From a virus, in the UHGV virus genome UHGV-0289694: a stretch of DNA of 25,018 nucleotides. One strand, given 5' to 3'. Below, piece after piece: positions 6,064 to 15,513 of the stretch; the stretch's first letter is position 1, and the number at the start of each line of letters is the position of its first letter. Made by a program: the position numbers and the translations under genes. A model generated the notes under the pieces. That model made no database searches. It saw only the letters and a program-made list of their open reading frames with translations, and was not told where the DNA came from.

Positions 6064-6917
6064 GCACCATCCTGAAATGGGCGGGAAATAAAACCGCCAT
6101 TATGTTCGAACTGAAAAAACATCTTCCTGCTGGTCCGCGACTGGTTGAACCTTTCGCGGGTTCCTGTGCAGTGATGATGGAGACGGATTACCCCAGCTAT
6201 CTTGTTGCGGATATTAATCCTGATTTAATCAACCTCTATAAAAAGGTTGCTGCTGATTGTGAGGCGTTTATATCTCGTGCCAGAGCTTTATTTGAGGAAG
6301 CAAACAGAGAGGTGGCTTATTACAACATAAGGCAGGAGTTTAATTACTCCACTGAAATTACTGATTTCATGAAAGCGGTATATTTTCTGTATCTCAATCG
6401 TCACGGTTACCGTGGTTTATGTCGCTATAACAAGAGCGGGCATTTCAACATTCCCTACGGTAATTATAAAAATCCGTATTTCCCTGAAAAAGAAATTCGC
6501 GCATTTGCAGAAAAAGCCCAGCGAGCAACGTTTATCTGCGCCAGCTTTGATGAAACGCTGGCGATGTTGAAGGCGGGGGATGTGGTGTATTGCGATCCGC
6601 CGTATGACGGTACGTTTTCCGGCTATCACACTGATGGTTTCACTGAAGATGACCAGTATCACCTGGCATCCGTTCTTGAACATCGGTCATCAGAAGGACA
6701 TCCGGTCATTGTTTCTAACAGTGACACATCCCTGATCCGTTCGCTGTATCGCAATTTTACTCACCACTATATCAAGGTAAAACGCAGCATCGGTGTGGCA
6801 GCTGGCGAGGGTAAATCAGCAACAGAAATCATTGCTGTTTCCGGGCCGCGCTGCTGGGTGGGATTTGATTATTCGCGTGGCGTGGATAGTTCTGCCGTGT
6901 ACGGAGTACGTGCATGA
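6060..6917 (+). CDS. dam: DNA adenine methyltransferase (Dam-like, N6-adenine)
   Basis: N-terminal ILKWAGNK...EPFAGSCAV (AdoMet-binding motif I) and the DPPY catalytic motif ([10 protein letters not shown]); GGAGG RBS; ATGA overlaps with TraR-like upstream and gene A downstream. Confidence 0.9.
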
Positions 6918-9307
6918 GCCATGCCGATATGAACAACTGCTGCGGCTTTAACGAGGTTGCCGCAGCGTTCTCATGGAACAGCCCGAAAAAGGCCATTAAC
7001 CCTTATCTGGACCCGGCGGAAGTTGCGCCGGTTTCTGCGCTTTCAAACCTGATCACTCTGTACGCTGCCGATAACGAGCAGGAACAGTTGCGCCGCGAGG
7101 CACTGAGTGATCAGGTCTGGGAGCGTTATTTTTTTAATGAATCACGTGATCCTGTCCAGCACGAAATGGAGCAGGATAAGCTCATTAGCCGGGCAAAGCT
7201 GGCGCATGAGCAGCAGCGTTTTAATCCGGATATGGTCATTCTGGCGGACGTCAACGCCCAGCCTTCTCATATCAGCAAGCCGCTTATGCAACGTATTGAA
7301 TACTTCAGCAGCCTGGGCAGGCCAAAGGCTTATTCCCGCTATTTACGTGAGACGATTAAGCCATGTCTGGAACGACTGGAGCATGTACGCGACAGCCAGC
7401 TATCTGCATCTTTTCGTTTTATGGCAAGCCATGTAGGGCTGGACGGCCTGCTGATCCTGCCTGAAATGAGTCAGGATCAGGTGAAACGCCTGTCTACCCT
7501 TGTCGCTGCGCATATGAGCATGTGCCTTGATGCAGCTTGTGGTGATTTGTATGCCACCGATGACGTTAAGCCAGAAGAAATCCGCAAGACATGGGAAAAG
7601 GTGGCAGCGGAAACCCTGCGTCTGGATGTCATCCCGCCTGCGTTTGAGCAACTCCGTCGGAAAAGAAACCGCCGTAAACCCGTGCCCTATGAACTCATTC
7701 CGGGTTCGCTGGCGCGTATGTTGTGCGCCGACTGGTGGTACCGGAAATTATGGAAAATGCGTTGCGAATGGCGGGAAGAGCAGTTGCGTGCTGTCTGCCT
7801 GGTCAGCAAAAAAGCATCTCCCTATGTCAGCTATGAAGCCGTGATGCATAAACGTGAGCAGCGCCGCAAGTCACTGGAGTTTTTCCGTTCTCATGAACTG
7901 GTGAACGAAGAGGGCGACACGCTGGATATGGAAGACGTGGTAAACGCCAGCAGCAGCAACCCGGCGCACCGCCGCAATGAGATGATGGCCTGTGTTAAAG
8001 GTCTGGAGCTTATCGCGGAAATGCGCGGTGACTGCGCCGTTTTCTACACCATTACCTGTCCGTCACGTTTCCATTCCACGCTCAATAACGGCAGACCAAA
8101 CCCAACCTGGACAAATGCGACGGTAAGACAAAGCAGCGATTATCTGGTCGGCATGTTTGCTGCATTTCGTAAGGCGATGCACAAAGCCGGGTTGCGCTGG
8201 TATGGCGTGCGGGTGGCTGAGCCGCATCATGACGGTACAGTTCACTGGCACCTGTTGTGTTTCATGCGCAAAAAAGACCGCCGCGCCATTACTGCATTGT
8301 TGCGTAAATTTGCCATCCGTGAAGACCGCGAGGAACTGGGTAATAACACTGGTCCACGCTTTAAATCTGAGCTGATAAACCCGCGCAAAGGAACGCCGAC
8401 AAGCTACATCGCGAAATACATCAGTAAGAACATTGACGGGCGTGGTCTGGCTGGCGAGATCAGCAAGGAAACGGGTAAATCCCTGCGTGATAACGCTGAA
8501 TACGTTAATGCCTGGGCGTCTCTGCATCGTGTTCAGCAATTCCGCTTCTTTGGCATTCCGGGGCGTCAGGCTTACCGTGAACTGCGATTGCTGGCTGGTC
8601 AGGCGGCAAGGCAACAGGGTGACAAAAAAGCAGGTGCGCCGGTACTGGATAACCCGCGCCTTGATGCCATTCTGGCTGCAGCTGATGCTGGTTGCTATGC
8701 CACCTACATCATGAAGCAGGGCGGCGTACTGGTTCCCCGTAAATATCACCTCATCAGAACCGCTTATGAAATCAACGAAGAGCCGACCGCCTATGGCGAT
8801 CACAGTATTCGTATTTATGGCATCTGGTCACCCATTGCAGAGGGCAAGATCTGCACTCATGCAGTGAAGTGGAAAATGGTTCGTAAGGCCGTTGACGTTC
8901 AGGAGGCGGCAGCCGACCAGGGCGCTTGCGCCCCTTGGACTCGTGGCAATAACTGTCCCCCTGTTGAAAATTTGAACCAGACAGGGGGGGAGCTGCCCGA
9001 TATTAAAACCATGAATGAGCAGGAACTGCAGGATTACCTACACAATATGGGCCAGAAGGAACGCCGGGAGCTGACAGCCAGGTTGAGACTGGTAAAACCG
9101 AAGCGGAAAAAAGCATACATACAGAGTATTTCGGAGCAACAGCGCCTGCAGCTTGAGGCAGAACTCAGCTCCCGGGGATTTAATGCAAGCGATGCTGAAG
9201 TGGATCTACTTTTACGTGGCGGCAGCATTCCGTCAGGTGCCGGGCTGCGTATTTTTTACCGCAAACACCGGCTGCAGGAAGATGACAAATGGCGGCAGTG
9301 GTACTGA
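6914..9307 (+). CDS. A: Rolling-circle replication initiator (P2 gpA-like HUH endonuclease)
   Basis: 797 aa; HUH-type motif VHWHLLCF and active-site tyrosine motif [12 protein letters not shown]; size and position match P2 A / 186 A. Confidence 0.9.
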
Positions 9308-9386
9308 CAGCAAGGCTTTAACAATTCATGCTCTTAACGACTCTGCGCCAGAGTGTTCTCATTGACGGATAAAAAATATTTTACAT

Positions 9387-9422
9387 TTGAATACCAGGGG
9401 TGTACTGTATATATATACAGTA
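9387..9422 (+). promoter_or_regulatory. SOS-regulated promoter: -35 TTGAAT, 17-nt spacer, -10 TATATA, overlapped by a perfect LexA box TACTGTATATATATACAGTA (9403-9422)
   Basis: The 20-mer is the palindromic consensus LexA operator (CTGT-N8-ACAG) and covers the -10 hexamer. A second palindrome GTATGCATGCATAC follows at 9420-9433. Confidence 0.75.
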
Positions 9423-9469
9423 TGCATGCATACAGCTATCGTGTGTCCGTGGTCGTGATAGGAGGGAAG

Positions 9470-9658
9470 ATGCAGGACTATCTTTTGGAGTCGTTGAAGC
9501 TCCAGCGCATTGATTTTTTTATTAAGCTTGTAGCGGCTAGTGAGTGTAACGACGAAGAAAAGCGGCTGGCTATCCAGTGGGTTTCGGAGTTGACCGATGA
9601 GCTTATGGCGAAGATTCGCGCTCATGAATACAACCGCTCAATGGATCTTCCTGGTTAG
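9470..9658 (+). CDS. Small SOS-controlled protein, possibly a Tum-like antirepressor
   Basis: 62 aa; GGAGGGA RBS; first ORF downstream of the LexA-boxed promoter. 186-type phages carry a LexA-repressed tum gene at this map position, but I did not recognise Tum or DinI sequence similarity. Confidence 0.4.
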   Translation: MQDYLLESLKLQRIDFFIKLVAASECNDEEKRLAIQWVSELTDELMAKIRAHEYNRSMDLPG

Positions 9659-9799
9659 TTTTTCAAAGCTGAAAACAACCGAGTGAAAGTTACGACGCTT
9701 GAACTTTTAACTTGGGTTACAATCAGAACACTCGTTTTCGTTCACAAACGAACCTGCCATACCCTAATGTGGTAATGGCGTTCAATTTTTACTAAATGG

Positions 9800-10360
9800 T
9801 TGCAAATGCTTGTTATGAATCATGTAATGTTAGATATAGAAACATTGGATGTTGAAAAAACGGCTTATATCCTTTCGGTTGGTGCGGCTTTCTTCGTGCC
9901 GGAGACTGGCGAGGTTGGTCCGGGTTTCTATCAAGTTATTTCGCTTGATCATGAACAAGCAGGCAGAACCATTGCCCCCTCCACTGTAAAGTGGTGGATG
10001 TATCAAAGTTCTGAAGCTAAAAACGAAAATTTTGGTGGCACTAAGGACCTTTTAGACGTTCTGAATGAATTTGTGGCGTTTGTTCTTCATAATCGTAATG
10101 GCCGAGTAAAAGTGTGGGGAAACGGGAAAGAGTTCGACTGCACTATCATGCATCATGCCCTGTCACAGGCAGGTCTGGAGTGCCCATGGTCATTCAGAGA
10201 TACTCTTGACGTCAGAACCATCTTAGCGCTTGGTGAAAGCAAAGGAATTTTTTCTCATGCTGACAAAAAGTTCACTGGCATCAGGCACACAGCATTCGAT
10301 GATGTTTTATTTCAGATCGCACTGGTTTCTCATATCTATATGAATTTAAATAAAAAATAA
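9800..10360 (+). CDS. DnaQ-like DEDDh 3'-5' exonuclease (start may be at 9815 or 9827)
   Basis: Exo I motif MLDIETLD (D-x-E), Exo II WGNGKEFDCTIM, Exo III HTAFDDV (H-x4-D); ~180 aa single-domain protein; lower GC than phage core genes. Confidence 0.8.
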   Translation: MQMLVMNHVMLDIETLDVEKTAYILSVGAAFFVPETGEVGPGFYQVISLDHEQAGRTIAPSTVKWWMYQSSEAKNENFGGTKDLLDVLNEFVAFVLHNRNGRVKVWGNGKEFDCTIMHHALSQAGLECPWSFRDTLDVRTILALGESKGIFSHADKKFTGIRHTAFDDVLFQIALVSHIYMNLNKK

Positions 10361-10375
10361 ATATAGGACTTAGCT

Positions 10376-11287
10376 ATGGATTGCTTAGATGTAACCAATT
10401 GGACTGAGCTAGATGTTTTCGCACAATATCCTGTTGGTGCTCGCTCTAAGGCATTGGTTATTTCCCCTGATGTAGCACCCCATGGTATCAAAGCATCGTG
10501 GCCGTATCTTTTTAAGAGAAGTATTAAAAAGTATCCAGATCAATTTTGGTGTGAGATCGTTGCCTACAGGATTGGATTGAAGCTTGGTTTTGATGTCCCC
10601 AAAGCAGTTCCATCGGTAAAGACTAATGATTTGGGGCATACGTTTTGCGGGGCCCTCATTGAGTGGTTTCATCATAAAGATTATGAGAAATTTGCTCCCG
10701 CTGGTGATTACTTTGTCCGAAGAGATCCAAATTTTGATCGCGAGAAAGGAGCTCAGCATTCCCTTGAAGGGCTGAGGATTATCGCGAAAGCTCTTAAAGT
10801 TGACTATGTTGAGTGGTTGGAGGACATGGCTCTCTTTGACGCTGTGATAGGTAATACAGATAGACATCAAGAAAATTGGGGGTTTGTCTTTTCACCTTTA
10901 GCCAGCGAGTGTCAGCTTGCACCATTTTTCGATAATGGTACGAGCTTATGTTACGAACGCTTTCCGGAGCATGTTGCCGATTGGACCGATCATAGACTCA
11001 GGGAGCATGTTGGCCGGGGAAGGCATCATTTGCGTAAGACTCTGGGCAAAGATGAGTATCAGAGATTAGGTCATTTAGAGTTCATCAAAGAACTTTGTGA
11101 TAAAAAAGAAGCATTAAAACAGCGGGTAGCTGAAAAACTGGCTCTTTTGAACCATGATTTTTGGGAGTCAACTTTTGCGGAGTTGACGGAAATAAACTGC
11201 CCTGTTCCGCTGACTAGAGAACGTGCTGCATGGATTGTTCGTGTAACAAACATGCGTATTGAACTGATTAAAGGTGTTACTTCATGA
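10376..11287 (+). CDS. HipA-like Ser/Thr kinase core (HipT-like, lacking the HipA N-terminal subdomain)
   Basis: P-loop-like PVGARSKALV (cf. HipA VAGAQEKTAL), catalytic motif VIGNTDRHQEN (cf. HipA GATDGHAKN; Asp at nt 10859), Mg-binding LAPFFDNG (cf. HipA TPFYD); 303 aa; 15-nt gap after the exonuclease gene. Confidence 0.8.
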   Translation: MDCLDVTNWTELDVFAQYPVGARSKALVISPDVAPHGIKASWPYLFKRSIKKYPDQFWCEIVAYRIGLKLGFDVPKAVPSVKTNDLGHTFCGALIEWFHHKDYEKFAPAGDYFVRRDPNFDREKGAQHSLEGLRIIAKALKVDYVEWLEDMALFDAVIGNTDRHQENWGFVFSPLASECQLAPFFDNGTSLCYERFPEHVADWTDHRLREHVGRGRHHLRKTLGKDEYQRLGHLEFIKELCDKKEALKQRVAEKLALLNHDFWESTFAELTEINCPVPLTRERAAWIVRVTNMRIELIKGVTS

Positions 11288-11988
11288 CTATCTTAATAGA
11301 AAACATTCCCATGCCCAGTAGGCTCTTACTGACATGGCAACCGGTTGACGGAGGCTCTCGCTATGTCGTTGGTGAGCTTCTTCAAGATGAGTCTGAAGGC
11401 TACGAGTTTAATTATCTTACTGATAGCAAAGATTTTGCTAAAGCTAGGGATAACGGCTTTCGCGGTTTTCCTGCTTTTGATATAAAAGTTGCGACTCATC
11501 GCAAAGACGTTATGCAAACCTTTTCAAGAAGGTTACCCTCCAGGAAAAGAGAAGATTTTGACGATTACTTGCTGACGTTTCGTCTTCCTGCTGATTTTAG
11601 AGAGAATGACTTCGTTTTGCTCGCATGTACTGGCGGAAAAGTTGCTAGTGATGGTTTTTATTTTGTCCCAGACTTGTCTTCTGTTCGGCCACCTTTCGAT
11701 TACGTCATGGAGGTCGCTGGAACGAGGCACATGATCAAGGAAGGGCGTCTAGCGCTTGATGAGATATCAATTGGTGATGAAGTCATATTGCGGAATGAAG
11801 ATACCAATACGGTTGATCCGCTGGCCATATTGGTTACGAAAAACGACAATCATCTCGGATATGTCAACAAGGCATTGTGCGCCGCATTACGTGATCTAAG
11901 TAAAAACCATGATGTCAGTGGAGTGGTCGTACGTAAAAATGGCTCTTCGGATAGGCCTTTGATTTATGCAAAAGTATCCGTTCGGTGA
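11284..11988 (+). CDS. Two-domain protein: HipA N-terminal-like (HipS-like) domain fused to a HIRAN-like domain
   Basis: ATGA start/stop overlap with the kinase gene. N-terminal LLLTWQPVDGGSRYVVGELL...FSRRLP...LLACTGGKVASDGFYFVP parallels HipA residues 1-100 (KLVTWMNNQRVGEL...FDNLLPD...IGRDSVGAVTLIP). C-terminal DEVILRNEDTNTVDPLAILVTKNDNHLGYVNKALCAALRDL...VSGVVV fits the HIRAN pattern (L-x-L-x-R-E-x-x-N-x-x-D-x-x-A-I-x-V ... G-Y/H-hydrophobic ... A-x-x-L-A-x-x-hydrophobic-D). Domain calls are from motif memory, not a search. Confidence 0.6.
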   Translation: MTILIENIPMPSRLLLTWQPVDGGSRYVVGELLQDESEGYEFNYLTDSKDFAKARDNGFRGFPAFDIKVATHRKDVMQTFSRRLPSRKREDFDDYLLTFRLPADFRENDFVLLACTGGKVASDGFYFVPDLSSVRPPFDYVMEVAGTRHMIKEGRLALDEISIGDEVILRNEDTNTVDPLAILVTKNDNHLGYVNKALCAALRDLSKNHDVSGVVVRKNGSSDRPLIYAKVSVR

Positions 11989-12089
11989 AGCATGTTTATT
12001 CATGCTTGCCGGTAATAAGGTGCTCTTGATTTAGTGCATGTCTATGCCGCATAAATCCGCATGATCGTTTGATGATCGTTTTAGCTGAG

Positions 12090-12117
12090 GCCCGCCAGGA
12101 ATGGCGGGCTTTTGCTT
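12090..12117 (+). terminator. Rho-independent terminator ending the accessory operon
   Basis: GCCCGCCA-GGAA-TGGCGGGC (8-bp GC-rich stem) followed by TTTTGCTT. Confidence 0.65.
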
Positions 12118-12158
12118 ATGTCATGCAGGCGCATGAAAACTGCTACATAAAGCGGGCA

Positions 12159-12177
12159 GGCGTGGCGGGGATACGAG
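12159..12177. other. Putative cos site (cohesive-end sequence)
   Basis: GGCGTGGCGGGGATACGAG; the first 13 nt match the 186/P2 cohesive-end sequence as I recall it (GGCGTGGCGGGGAAAGCAT), and the location between the A-side accessory region and Q is as expected. From memory only. Confidence 0.35.
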
Positions 12178-12382
12178 CGCGCACTCTGGGGTAAAATGGT
12201 CAAAATCCACCGCAATTTACTGGCTCAGGAACGTAGTTAGTTTTGTAGGTATAAACGGCTCTCACGTTAGATAGGCATGCAGGATGTGTTAAATCGTTGT
12301 GATGAAGTTAACGGTGACTGAGACAGTTTAGGTCTAAGATATAACTTCTGGGTTAGTTAAAAATTGGAATAGTAAGACATTT

Positions 12383-12679
12383 ATGAAAACTACTTATAGC
12401 TATGATTTTCAATATATGCGCAAAGGTCAGGATCGCCCTGATGATGATGGAGAGGTTGTAGGGTGTAATTCAGAAGACAACTCGCTTTTGATGCTTCCAA
12501 ATGTGGGAGACTACGTAACAATTACGAATAAGGGTGGGCGTGCTCAATTTGATGGGCGGGTGAAAACAAGGCTTTTCAATTACCTACGCATTGCTGATGG
12601 TCATGTTCATTGCTCCATTTGCATTGTAGTTGAGGAAGTTGATATGGACTCCGTATGGGGGGCACTAATTAAAGAATAA
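12383..12679 (+). CDS. Hypothetical small protein between cos and Q
   Basis: 98-aa ORF, AT-rich, weak RBS, followed by a terminator hairpin; no motif recognised. It contains Asp-rich PDDDGEVVGC and a C-terminal HCSIC pair. Confidence 0.45.
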   Translation: MKTTYSYDFQYMRKGQDRPDDDGEVVGCNSEDNSLLMLPNVGDYVTITNKGGRAQFDGRVKTRLFNYLRIADGHVHCSICIVVEEVDMDSVWGALIKE

Positions 12680-12685
12680 TAGAAT

Positions 12686-12701
12686 GCCTGCAAATGCAGG
12701 C
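12686..12701. terminator. Bidirectional terminator hairpin between the 98-aa ORF and gene Q
   Basis: GCCTGC-AAAT-GCAGGC palindrome with T-rich flanks on both strands, between convergent genes. Confidence 0.5.
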
Positions 12702-12709
12702 GCTTTAAT

Positions 12710-13750
12710 TTACTCAGAAATATCTAAGTTGTAAGATTCAAAGCAAATCACTTTTTCACCTAGCCAGTTGTTCAGCTCTTGCAGCCGCTTTTGCAGTGGC
12801 ATCAGTTCATTGCGGACAAACACTCGACTAGCCTTCTCCACATCCCCAAACCCCCCGACATTATTAGGCATTATCCCCATCATTTGTGGCGGCACACGAT
12901 GCGCCGCCATCATGTCGTCCCGGCTCACGTTCTTGATATTCAGGAACTCATCCTTCGCCGCCACTTCTGACAACGGGATAATCTGAAGCCCGTCCTTTTT
13001 ACCGTTAGGCGAGTACATAAACAGGTTACGGAAGTTACCAGGACCTTTGGCGCTTTTCATCGCATTGCGGAGGTTGTTCACATCCTCCTGGTTCTGCGCA
13101 GCATCGGTCATGTACATGATGAAGCCTGCATGACTGCCGTTAATGTAATACTTGCGGCGGAACAGCGTGGCGGACTCGTTGAGCAGAGCTGACGGAATGG
13201 CAGAAAGATAACCGGGCAGGCCGTAGATCTCCTGGTTAATGTCCGGTTCCATCAGATGAAAAATGCTGCCTTTCGTGAACTGATACGGCTGGGTTGTCAT
13301 ACCGTATTGCACAAACCAGTAGGTATCCAGGTCTAACCCGCGTCGGGTGTATTTTGCCAGTGCAGGCTCAAGGGCGATAACTTCACCGAAGCGGTTCGTG
13401 CGTTTCTCCAGGTAGGCGTTACCAAAAACCAGATAGTCCTGCACAAAACGCGAAAAAGCCTGCTGGCTGAGCAGCGGGTGAGGGATGTAGGTGCTGGTCA
13501 GAATGTTGCATTTCACTGCAATTGGTGAACTGTGATGCACGGCAGCGCGGAAGGTGCGCGCCAGTCCGTCAAAGCTGACGGGAGGCTCATACCAGCGATC
13601 TGTCTGTACGCATTCCACATAGTCCAGCAGTTCGCGGCGGTCAAGTACTGGAATGGGATCACCGAAGCTGAATGCTTCGGCTGAAGCTTGGCTTTTATGC
13701 TGGATCTGGTTCGTCGCCGCAGCGCATTTTTTTTTACTCTTTCCCATCAA
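12710..13750 (-). CDS. Q: Portal protein (P2 gpQ-like)
   Basis: 346 aa; size, position downstream of the large terminase on the minus strand with start/stop overlap, and overall resemblance to P2 Q. Confidence 0.9.
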   Translation of the reverse strand: MMGKSKKKCAAATNQIQHKSQASAEAFSFGDPIPVLDRRELLDYVECVQTDRWYEPPVSFDGLARTFRAAVHHSSPIAVKCNILTSTYIPHPLLSQQAFSRFVQDYLVFGNAYLEKRTNRFGEVIALEPALAKYTRRGLDLDTYWFVQYGMTTQPYQFTKGSIFHLMEPDINQEIYGLPGYLSAIPSALLNESATLFRRKYYINGSHAGFIMYMTDAAQNQEDVNNLRNAMKSAKGPGNFRNLFMYSPNGKKDGLQIIPLSEVAAKDEFLNIKNVSRDDMMAAHRVPPQMMGIMPNNVGGFGDVEKASRVFVRNELMPLQKRLQELNNWLGEKVICFESYNLDISE

Positions 13751-15513
13751 AAAATCTCCACAATATTGCTGGTATTGGCGGACTCGCCCTGCAGCGGTTC
13801 GTTAAACAGTGCGTGCATTGTTGCCCAGGCCAGATCGGCATGGCTGGCTTCTTCGCTGCGGCTTGCTTCATAGGTCGGGCGGTTGCCACTGGCAGTGGTA
13901 GCGCGACGGATTGCCATAAATGACTGCGCAATGTCGGTGTGCCCGGCGTCAAACTCCAGACGGCGGTGGCTGATAATGTCGTAGGCCTTGAGTACCAGGG
14001 CGTTTTTAACGTTGGGGTTGTAGACAAACTCCCTGACGGCAGGAAAAAACGCTTTCACGTTCTCGTAAACCCCGTGACCGACGCCGGTCGAGTCGATACC
14101 GATATAGGTCACGTTATACTGTTCGGTCAGTTTTTTGATGGCGTCAGCCTGGGCGCGGAAGTCCATCCCGCGCCACTGGTGACGCTCAAGAATGCGGAAC
14201 TTACCACCCGGCACGGCTGGCGGAGCCACCACCACGCATCCGGCACTGTCGCCGTTCTGCGTACCTTTTGCCGGGTCATAACCGATCCACACTTCCCGCC
14301 AGCCAAACGGGCGCAGGGCCAGTGCATGAAAGTCGGTCCAGACTTCCCAGCTGTCCACCATGCACGCCTGCAGTTCGCTGAGCGGGAACACGGACGCGAG
14401 ATCGTCCACGAACTCGCACATCAGCAGGTTCTGGTATTCGTCCGGGCTGTACTCCATGCGCAGCTGGTCGAGGTCGAACAGGTTACAGCCGCCGCGCACC
14501 GCATCTTCCACGGTGACTATCTGGCGGTATTGCCCGTCTGCGCACAGTAGGCCGGGGGCCAGATTGCTGTGGGACAGGTCGATGTCCACCTTGTCAGCTT
14601 TGTTGCGTCCACGGTTGAACAGCGCACCGGACCAGAACGGATAAGCACTGTGGGTCAGGCTGGATGGCGTGGAAAAATAGGTTTGTCGCCATTTCTTGTG
14701 AATAGCCATACCGGAAGCCACTTTGCGCAACTCCTGGAATTTCGGTATCCAGAAATATTCATCCAGATACAGGTTGCCGTGGTAACTCTGCGCCGTGCGG
14801 GCATTGGTGCCGAGGAAGTAAAGCGTGGCCCCGTTAGGAAGCACCATCGGATCGCCTTTCAGCTCCACCTCGACTTCTTTGGCGAAGTCGATGATGTACT
14901 GCTTAAAGACGTGAGCCTGTGCCTTACTGGCAGAAAGGAAAATCTGGTTACGTCCGGTAAGCAGGGCGTCAATCAGGGCTTCACGGGCAAAGTAAAAGGT
15001 CGCGCCGATCTGGCGTGACTTCAGCAGGTTGCGGATGCGGTTGGTTTTTCCGGCTTCCCACCAGTGGCGCTGGTAGTTGAACATGGAGGAATGGAAGATT
15101 TCTTCCAGTTTATCTATCTGTTCATCGGTGAAAACATTCTTTTCCGGCTGACGGCGCGGGCCTTTGTTGCGGTTGGCGACGTTAGGGTTTAAGTCGGCTT
15201 CGTTGCCGCCATTGTTAAACTTGCCGATCCGCGCGTGGCGCTCCGACTGGCGCGCCAGCAGGTCAATTTCTTTGAAATCTTTCCCTTCTTTGTGCTCCTT
15301 CATAATGAGCTGGCAGTAACGTGCGGCGGTGGTGAGCTGCATCTGATCCAGCGGCCCATAGTCACCCCACTTGTCGCGTTTCTTCCAGCTGTGAACGGTT
15401 GCAACTTTCTCGCCCAGCATTTCAGCAATGCGGGCTACGCGGTATCCCTGAAAGTACAGCAGCATGGCCTGCCGACGGGGATCGAGATCTGCGGATGTCA
15501 GTGTGGTGTTCAT
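13747..15513 (-). CDS. P: Terminase large (ATPase) subunit (P2 gpP-like)
   Basis: 588 aa; N-terminal HTH-like region followed by an ATPase/nuclease body; divergent from O as in P2. Confidence 0.9.
   Translation of the reverse strand: MNTTLTSADLDPRRQAMLLYFQGYRVARIAEMLGEKVATVHSWKKRDKWGDYGPLDQMQLTTAARYCQLIMKEHKEGKDFKEIDLLARQSERHARIGKFNNGGNEADLNPNVANRNKGPRRQPEKNVFTDEQIDKLEEIFHSSMFNYQRHWWEAGKTNRIRNLLKSRQIGATFYFAREALIDALLTGRNQIFLSASKAQAHVFKQYIIDFAKEVEVELKGDPMVLPNGATLYFLGTNARTAQSYHGNLYLDEYFWIPKFQELRKVASGMAIHKKWRQTYFSTPSSLTHSAYPFWSGALFNRGRNKADKVDIDLSHSNLAPGLLCADGQYRQIVTVEDAVRGGCNLFDLDQLRMEYSPDEYQNLLMCEFVDDLASVFPLSELQACMVDSWEVWTDFHALALRPFGWREVWIGYDPAKGTQNGDSAGCVVVAPPAVPGGKFRILERHQWRGMDFRAQADAIKKLTEQYNVTYIGIDSTGVGHGVYENVKAFFPAVREFVYNPNVKNALVLKAYDIISHRRLEFDAGHTDIAQSFMAIRRATTASGNRPTYEASRSEEASHADLAWATMHALFNEPLQGESANTSNIVEIF

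Follow-up and report, generated by a model that had tools for sequence, protein, structure and literature searches.

Why does a temperate P2-type phage carry a small exonuclease gene immediately ahead of a kinase gene? The question is raised by the viral genome UHGV-0289694, analyzed here as one strand over a stretch of 25,018 nucleotides (nt; the window, with positions counted from its first letter), in which an initial annotation had marked a DEDDh exonuclease at positions 9800 to 10360 as a possible third component of the kinase operon that it heads. We propose that this gene (exo) is the first cistron of a mobile exo-hipI-hipN cassette, a three-component variant of the hipIN/HipL modules that combine a HipA-family kinase with a HIRAN domain, and that the exonuclease would set the threshold of the kinase, a reading that in our judgment stands about evenly between right and wrong. 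The cassette as a whole is probably an anti-phage system. Both the enzyme family and the kinase-HIRAN pair are known, and the exonuclease-headed combination of three genes was not found in the literature searched.

The exonuclease gene and its predicted operon

The open reading frame (ORF) at 9800-10360 on the plus strand, 186 amino acids (aa) long if read from TTG, is real, with a family match far past chance: residues 7-179 matched PF16473 ('Rv2179c-like 3'-5' exoribonuclease') with 172.6 bits (cut-off 27; E 8.5e-51), the match covering positions 1-176 of the 177 in the profile. It also matched PHROG 255 'exonuclease' (E 1.5e-60), and a profile built from 30 relatives led to T4 DexA (PDB 8KEL; E 1.8e-18), which was reached in the PDB by the profile only, the single sequence being insufficient. 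The AlphaFold2 model of the protein had a predicted local distance difference test (pLDDT) score of 94.2, and Foldseek returned 8KEL_A as its best match (E 1.1e-08; template modeling [TM] score 0.83), followed by RNase T (TM 0.7-0.78), Orn, and other DEDDh enzymes. Pfam, PHROG, the PDB profile, the AlphaFold2 model, and Foldseek thus agree on a DexA-like DEDDh exonuclease. The DEDDh set is intact (D3, E5, D104, H154, and D159, numbered from the Met at 9827), with the D-x-E of Exo I, the D of Exo II, and the H-x4-D of Exo III all present, and these residues are kept in 102-103 of 103 aligned relatives; the enzyme is probably catalytically active, with a predicted 3'-5' direction. Neither NCBIfam nor PADLOC offered a model for it. 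Single-sequence phmmer searches against the PDB gave a likeness to the immunoglobulin G (IgG) Fc region in dozens of chains (E down to 3e-4), which we rejected as spurious; these false matches stem from a chance W-x-NGKEF-C...MHHAL motif in the protein of 9827-10357 and constitute a trap for automated annotation.

An uncertain start codon and a weak ribosome-binding site had been noted from the outset, and both observations stand: the reading frame has four in-frame start candidates (TTG at 9800 and ATG at 9806, 9815, and 9827), and none is preceded by a Shine-Dalgarno sequence. Because homologous cassettes begin four codons ahead of MLDIE (M-N/K-H/N-L/V-M-L-D-I-E), where they have clear GGAGG-type sites, ATG 9815 rather than TTG 9800 is most likely the start, giving a predicted protein of 181 aa; the PGAP start in the copy of Escherichia coli N1420 corresponds to 9827. 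The closest E. coli copy, at the start of the record of E. coli EC101 (L002), has 98% DNA identity and carries a frameshift and an internal stop in its annotation. We discounted this frameshift as a sign of dispensability; gpA and dam of the same prophage are broken too, and an assembly error is more likely than decay.

The exonuclease stop codon (10358-10360) is followed by an AGGA at 10365-10368 and by the kinase ATG at 10376, that is, by a 15-nt gap with a Shine-Dalgarno sequence, in which a consensus scan found neither a promoter-like nor a terminator-like site. The kinase and HIRAN genes share an ATGA overlap at 11284-11287. Downstream of hipN, a strong hairpin that the consensus terminator scan overlooked (Table 1) lies within a fold of -25.2 kcal/mol (12082-12122; z -4.85), and none of 200 shuffles was equally stable. 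The 15-nt gap, the ATGA overlap, and the terminator after hipN together indicate that the three genes are one predicted operon, with the DEDDh exonuclease at its head as had been suggested, in the classical P2 tin/old cargo position. In the leader upstream of exo, a -10-like TACAAT at 9718-9723 (TATAAT in E. coli N1420) stands without a canonical -35, followed by a short palindromic sequence, TTCGTTcacaAACGAA, around 9733-9748; no promoter with at least 9 of 12 matches and no terminator emerged from the consensus scan of this leader.

The second gene encodes a HipA-family kinase (Pfam HipA_C, 39.5 bits, cut-off 30.5; PADLOC PDC-M03A, E 1.6e-34) that looks intact from its translated motifs GARSK, DRHQEN, and FDNG, and whose nearest solved chain is CtkA. 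The third, hipN, encodes a HIRAN protein (Pfam HIRAN, 32.7 bits, cut-off 24.7; PADLOC PDC-M03B, E 5.8e-37), the AlphaFold2 model of which (pLDDT 95.1) led Foldseek to the HIRAN domain of HLTF bound to DNA (E 2e-05). Both proteins match the 547-aa phrog_26212, and PADLOC classes the pair as the candidate defense system PDC-M03. As described previously, hipIN consists of a small HipI kinase and of HipN, which joins a HipS-like N-terminal domain to a HIRAN domain, and HipL is the fused, single-protein form (PMC8262856). HipS-type domains neutralize their cognate kinases, HIRAN domains bind 3' DNA ends, and the characterized HipA kinases target the aminoacyl-tRNA synthetases GltX and TrpS, leading to translation arrest (PMC8262856). 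The hipIN pair of the window is a toxin-antitoxin-like module and a candidate defense system. Several hipIN modules that lack the exonuclease (L101, L106, L108, L111, L128, and also L200) stand directly after hsdS of a type I restriction-modification (R-M) system or inside other defense islands, one of which holds a type ISP R-M system and a HATPase gene; this placement supports a defense role for hipIN itself.

Linkage to hipIN and HipL in one sub-lineage

Searches seeded with HipN yielded 116 loci in metagenomes and viral contigs, in which kinase and exonuclease were scored by hidden Markov models (HMMs); a locus entered the linkage count only if 650 nt or more of sequence were available upstream of its kinase gene. 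The exonuclease gene lay immediately upstream of fused HipL in 26 of 26 loci (19 distinct proteins; among them L089-L093, L103, L107, L112, L170-L191, and L198), with gaps of 3-12 nt, and immediately upstream of split hipIN in 11 loci (5 distinct proteins), the gaps over all linked loci being 3-19 nt. In a tree of HipN, the exonuclease-linked modules all fell in one clade, with L088 as the sole informative exception, and within this clade every locus with room for the gene had it (37/37). Across split and fused forms, the identity of the exonucleases of any two loci rose and fell with that of their HipN proteins, over a range from 100% to about 38-45% (r 0.97 by Pearson/Mantel, reached by 0 of 2000 permutations). 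The HipL-type cassette had no match in E. coli genomes and must therefore reside in other Enterobacterales. HipL, called monocistronic in the literature, is in effect bicistronic.

The three genes also move together. In L107, L186, and L189, gpA is about 85% identical to that of the window and the exonuclease merely about 40%; conversely, a Yersinia ruckeri-type locus (L169) has a gpA of 40%, an exonuclease of 53%, and a HipN of 64% identity. Because these values are mismatched, divergence of the cassette is uncoupled from that of the phage backbone. Most trios lie between the gpA and portal genes of P2-like phages that differ widely (27-98% identity in gpA). In L199, a 186-like prophage, the trio adjoins integrase and repressor genes, and in L075, from a Shewanella genome, it stands beside an insertion sequence (IS) element that neighbors groEL. 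The unit exo-hipI-hipN thus moves across three contexts. Against the E. coli N1420 copy, the ratios of nonsynonymous to synonymous substitution rates (dN/dS) were 0.20 for the exonuclease, 0.22 for the kinase, and 0.10 for HipN, similar purifying selection on all three genes.

A single substitution accompanies the linkage. In an HMM alignment, PCKFW(152)NQRDIRT of DexA aligns with PWSFR(124)DTLDVRT of the window exonuclease, so that Arg124 takes the place of DexA W152, which contacts the substrate from the neighboring subunit and is needed for cutting 5-hydroxymethylcytosine (5hmC) DNA (Kang et al. 2025, PMC12153337). Position 124 is Arg in all 26 distinct kinase-linked exonucleases, and also in the L199 copy; among 77 non-linked relatives it is Trp in 61 and Arg in 2. 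As a predictor of kinase linkage R124 was rejected, being necessary and not sufficient, and by this sequence pattern it is characteristic of the linked lineage rather than diagnostic alone. DexA D169 sits in a DexA insertion ('rdmtt', in lower case in the HMM alignment) without a counterpart in the family profile. By eye, the motif PWSFRDTLDVRT around Arg124 (10175-10215) lines up with an Orn segment, FHYRYLDVST, which bears the 5'-phosphate-cap residues Tyr129 and Arg130; if this alignment is right, Arg124 could restrict the enzyme to short substrates.

Beyond this lineage, the family is common and mostly kinase-free. By tblastn, 708 phage records contain a relative, in no case with more than 60% identity; there, the family member mostly lacks a polymerase partner and almost never stands beside a kinase. 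The family is also represented in at least 590 viral contigs, mostly lambdoid prophages among the matches listed. The initial annotation had considered a DnaQ-like exonuclease without a polymerase unusual in a temperate phage; given these numbers, it is not. The viral-contig matches listed for the exonuclease seed are lambdoid copies only and omit known 100% matches, and they served as a negative sample. Hip genes adjoined a family member in 2 of 80 species-representative genome loci, the other 78 having no kinase neighbor, and a kinase stood beside it in 0 of 80 viral loci among the matches listed. In lambdoid prophages the gene is stand-alone or fused to RecE, and in distant P2-like phages it directly precedes gpA (L072, Psychromonas) or a Toprim primase (L038, Salmonella). 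Serratia, Hafnia, and Edaphovirga (L003-L031, L068) carry a stand-alone chromosomal copy between an ATP-binding cassette (ABC) transporter permease and a major facilitator superfamily (MFS) transporter; it is 45-49% identical to the window exonuclease, has Trp at position 124, occupies the same place in every species sampled, and may be a domesticated copy.

Linkage is therefore a property of one sub-lineage and not of the exonuclease family. The idea of a third component, for which co-occurrence had been named as a check, is favored within that lineage by the 37 of 37 loci, the correlation, and the joint mobility, and it does not extend to the whole family. An exonuclease occurring mostly apart from kinase genes had been named as part of the outcome that would speak against the idea; for the family as a whole this is what we found (in 78 of 80 genome loci and, among the matches listed, 80 of 80 viral loci), and not in the sub-lineage.

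The prophage setting

The whole window is a P2-type prophage, and the description of a temperate P2-type genome is borne out by the presence of gpA, portal, and terminase genes (Table 1), with the cargo lying between gpA and its orf91-like neighbor on one side and portal and terminase on the other.

Table 1. Positions of the cassette, its signals, and the flanking backbone genes in the window
Feature	Position	Strand	Remark
Replication endonuclease gpA	6914-9307		Backbone
Small P2 orf91-like backbone gene, ~62 aa	9470-9658	+	Precedes cargo
Intergenic leader of the cassette	9659-9814	+	Sequence reading
DexA-like / Rv2179c-like DEDDh 3'-5' exonuclease (predicted), 181 aa	9815-10360	+	ORF open from 9800
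Arg124 codon (numbered from Met at 9827)	10196-10198	+	T4 DexA Trp152 position
HipI-type small HipA-family Ser/Thr kinase, 303 aa	10376-11287	+	Putative toxin/effector
HipN, 234 aa, C-terminal HIRAN domain	11284-11988	+	Putative antitoxin/sensor
Intrinsic terminator closing the three-gene operon	12090-12117	+	GCCCGCC-aggaat-GGCGGGC then TTTTGCTT
cos-like site GGCGTGGCGGGGATACGA	12159-12176	+	End of gpA-to-cos cargo hotspot
Portal	12710-13750	minus	Backbone
Terminase	13747-15513	minus	Backbone

The G+C content of the cargo stretch is 0.38-0.47 (exonuclease 0.42, kinase 0.43, HIRAN gene 0.44) versus 0.51-0.56 for the backbone. The flanks of the cargo match 1232 E. coli records and the cargo itself just 5-6; the window-type trio is correspondingly rare, and among 5426 complete E. 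coli genomes 5-6 carry it. In position, variability, and deviant composition, the cassette agrees throughout with cargo of the P2 gpA-to-cos (tin/old) hotspot. We rejected the exonuclease as a constant part of the P2 backbone or hotspot, both because the flanks are common and the cargo rare in E. coli and because the P2-like loci L197 and L158 have hipIN without it. In the E. coli copies of this prophage type (N1420; L001, 7110-8795) an Old-like 'ATP-dependent nuclease' comes after the trio, from which it follows that the hotspot stacks at least two cargo units.

On the upstream side, the orf91-like gene adjoins gpA across many P2-like loci irrespective of cargo. Its phrog_698 match covers residues 40-99 alone of a 101-aa, GTG-started ORF at 9353-9658 (E 1.4e-35), and the longer ORF is probably an over-call of a true 62-aa gene that begins at about 9470; a weak match of the N-terminal part of the longer ORF to FAIM1 is likely noise. 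On the downstream side, the cos-like pattern, modeled on the P2/186 cohesive ends, occurs once in the window and in none of 100 shuffled sequences, and the site is a lead only. It lies together with the terminator in an unannotated stretch (12032-12182) that is 85-90% conserved in Fels-2 and many Klebsiella and Salmonella P2-like phages. The interval from the cos-like site to the portal gene contains a 98-aa ORF on the plus strand (12383-12679; phrog_12676, unknown function; G+C content 0.42), which is followed by a bidirectional terminator-like hairpin at 12685-12702, and this region looks like a second small cargo slot.

Proposed role, rival explanations, and known systems

We propose the following scheme, in which the N-terminal domain of HipN would keep the HipI kinase inactive while its HIRAN domain would read free 3'-OH DNA ends or short deoxy-oligonucleotides released by the replication of a competing phage or by degradation of host DNA. 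Binding of such a ligand would free the kinase, which would then phosphorylate an essential translation factor, possibly an aminoacyl-tRNA synthetase as in characterized HipA relatives, and abort the infection. The exonuclease would constantly clear background 3' ends and oligonucleotides, setting the activation threshold and avoiding self-intoxication, so that the system would fire only once the exonuclease is saturated or its substrate protected; the change from Trp to Arg at the DexA-W152 position may be a sign of an altered substrate preference. DEDDh enzymes require a free 3'-OH, and degradation of cyclic nucleotides, also raised by the initial annotation, is for this reason unlikely.

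The strongest argument that a 3'-5' DNA nuclease is functionally tied to HIRAN-kinase systems comes from outside the family, because two different DEDD families adjoin modules of this kind. About a third of the NrnC-type DEDD deoxydinucleotidases (diDNases) of Actinomycetes and Clostridia are immediate neighbors of genes with HipA and HIRAN domains, an association that was left unexplained (Mortensen et al. 2025, PMC11706625). A more general scheme, in which the kinase-HIRAN module would act as a sensor of DNA debris and a DEDD 'eraser' would set its threshold, the combination having been assembled twice from unrelated DEDD families (DexA-like in P2-type prophages of gammaproteobacteria, NrnC-like among Gram-positives), is a tentative extension that we regard as rather doubtful.

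Several observations weigh against a threshold-setting exonuclease. Split hipIN lacked the exonuclease in 42 loci, so the kinase-HIRAN pair needs none in general, and the 56 immediate neighbors of these exonuclease-less modules included no recurrent DEDD family; they were instead hsdS of type I R-M systems, integrases, and assorted genes. The correlation between the exonuclease and HipN reflects long co-inheritance, not cooperation, and is no proof of interaction because adjacent genes of a mobile cassette co-diverge regardless. In a neighbor-joining tree the linked exonucleases formed two clades, and the stand-alone Serratia/Hafnia clade was sister to that of the window. A blind test of Arg124 found that four more distant homologues with this residue were all in DNA-metabolism modules of lytic phages, without kinases. 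Neither Foldseek nor the PDB profile matched the HipN N terminus to HipS or to the HipA N-subdomain among solved structures. PDC-M03 is graded only as a candidate defense system, and the searched literature contained no experimental paper testing PDC-M03 or hipIN. Finally, the direction of the effect (removal or production of the ligand) and the nature of the ligand are guesses on our part.

Three other explanations have to be weighed against the same evidence. The exonuclease might be an independent defense nuclease of the HREX type that degrades modified (5hmC-type) phage DNA and shares only hotspot and transcript with hipIN. Such a role would fit its membership in the family of EcD, a bacterial DexA homologue that cleaved 5hmC DNA and, expressed by itself, gave E. 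coli protection against T4 (PMC12153337), as well as the habit of P2 hotspots of stacking unrelated defense genes, of which the Old-like nuclease after the N1420 trio is an example. We nevertheless consider it improbable: the Trp needed for 5hmC recognition is Arg here and in all 26 kinase-linked relatives, the segment with D169 is absent, and an independent gene is unlikely to hold a 3-19-nt junction down to about 40% identity, through a fusion or fission event and in three contexts, given how quickly the hotspot is reshuffled. An RNA substrate is suggested by the name of the Pfam family, which derives from the Mycobacterium tuberculosis exoribonuclease Rv2179c, and by RNase T as the second-best structural match. 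RNase T turns over tRNA 3' ends, and a related activity could trim the 3' CCA ends of uncharged tRNA after an aminoacyl-tRNA synthetase has been blocked, deepening or locking the translation arrest. The known targets of HipA kinases, GltX and TrpS, would suit such a co-effector (PMC8262856). To this explanation, too, we assign a low probability, since T4 DexA, the nearest relative of known structure, degrades DNA (PMC12153337), the DEDD enzymes that accompany HipA-HIRAN genes in Gram-positives act strictly on DNA (PMC11706625), the partner domain HIRAN binds DNA 3' ends, and an unregulated tRNA-end nuclease as the first cistron would risk toxicity.

It is equally unlikely, in our estimate, that the gene serves the prophage itself, in recombination, the processing of replication ends, nucleotide scavenging, or counter-defense, its link to hipIN being historical, for example through a cassette promoter lying upstream of it. 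Most family members do reside in early, recombination, or replication modules of phages, as in the lambdoid, Psychromonas, and Salmonella cases above, and copies in lytic phages adjoin DNA Pol A or RNase H. The window exonuclease, however, lies outside the replication operon in low-G+C cargo and travels with hipIN rather than with the backbone; the trio is also present outside prophages, in Shewanella, and P2-like phages with other cargo at this place do without it, as the counts of flank and cargo records in E. coli illustrate.

If the threshold-setting reading is true, it would add a third, enzymatic component to widespread kinase-based modules with a putative toxin and defense role and would give them a concrete trigger in DNA 3' ends and short oligonucleotides. 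HipL kinases would then be two-gene systems, correcting their description as 'monocistronic', and the association left open in the 2025 diDNase paper would be explained; under the more general scheme, short linear DNA oligonucleotides would be a danger signal akin to a second messenger. The exonuclease-plus and exonuclease-minus hipIN lineages, together with the Arg/Trp switch at position 124, provide natural controls. For P2-type prophages, the cassette is one more type of cargo in the tin/old hotspot.

Compared with known systems, the window exonuclease shares with T4 DexA (8KEL/8KEN) the PF16473 family, the fold, the DEDDh set, and a similar size, but it is only about 20% identical, is missing loops and helices peculiar to DexA, among them the stretch that bears D169, and has an Arg for W152. 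The T4 gene belongs to the nucleotide-scavenging set of a lytic phage, whereas the window gene is part of a prophage cargo operon with a kinase. EcD, or 'HREX', is likewise a short bacterial or prophage DexA-like exonuclease with a proposed anti-phage role (Kang et al. 2025, PMC12153337); it is a stand-alone gene that requires the equivalents of W152 and D169, whereas the window enzyme is the first cistron beside hipIN and carries Arg for the Trp, which argues against classing it as HREX. Cap18 (PDB 7T2S), the accessory DEDDh exonuclease of some operons for CBASS (antiphage signaling based on cyclic oligonucleotides), was a weak Foldseek match (rank 45, TM 0.63) from another DEDDh subfamily and has another partner system. 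The likeness to Cap18 is one of role, that of an accessory small DEDDh exonuclease gene in an abortive-infection operon. The place of the cassette is that of the P2 tin/old hotspot, whose low-GC, replaceable cargo lies between gpA/orf91 and cos/Q (Rousset et al. 2022, PMC9122126); neither that study nor a 2026 survey of P2/P4 hotspots mentions HipA, HIRAN, or this exonuclease.

A published parallel, the only related report in the literature searched, is found in the diDNase clusters, which likewise place a small DEDD 3'-5' nuclease beside HipA and HIRAN genes on mobile elements (PMC11706625). The diDNases, however, are Gram-positive, NrnC-type DEDDy enzymes with an HHAxFD(L/I)xF Exo II, a C-terminal Tyr, and strict deoxydinucleotide specificity (PMC11706625), whereas the window enzyme is a PF16473 DEDDh protein with GNGKEFDC as its Exo II and His154 as the general base, from gammaproteobacterial P2-like prophages. 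The window kinase and its HIRAN partner, for their part, are typical members of hipIN/hipL (Gerdes et al. 2021, PMC8262856), the systems that correspond to PDC-M03. There, hipIN was defined as a two-gene system and hipL as 'monocistronic', neither including an exonuclease (PMC8262856), whereas the window cassette has one as its upstream cistron; the exonuclease is thus an addition to the known hipIN/hipL system rather than a defined member of it.

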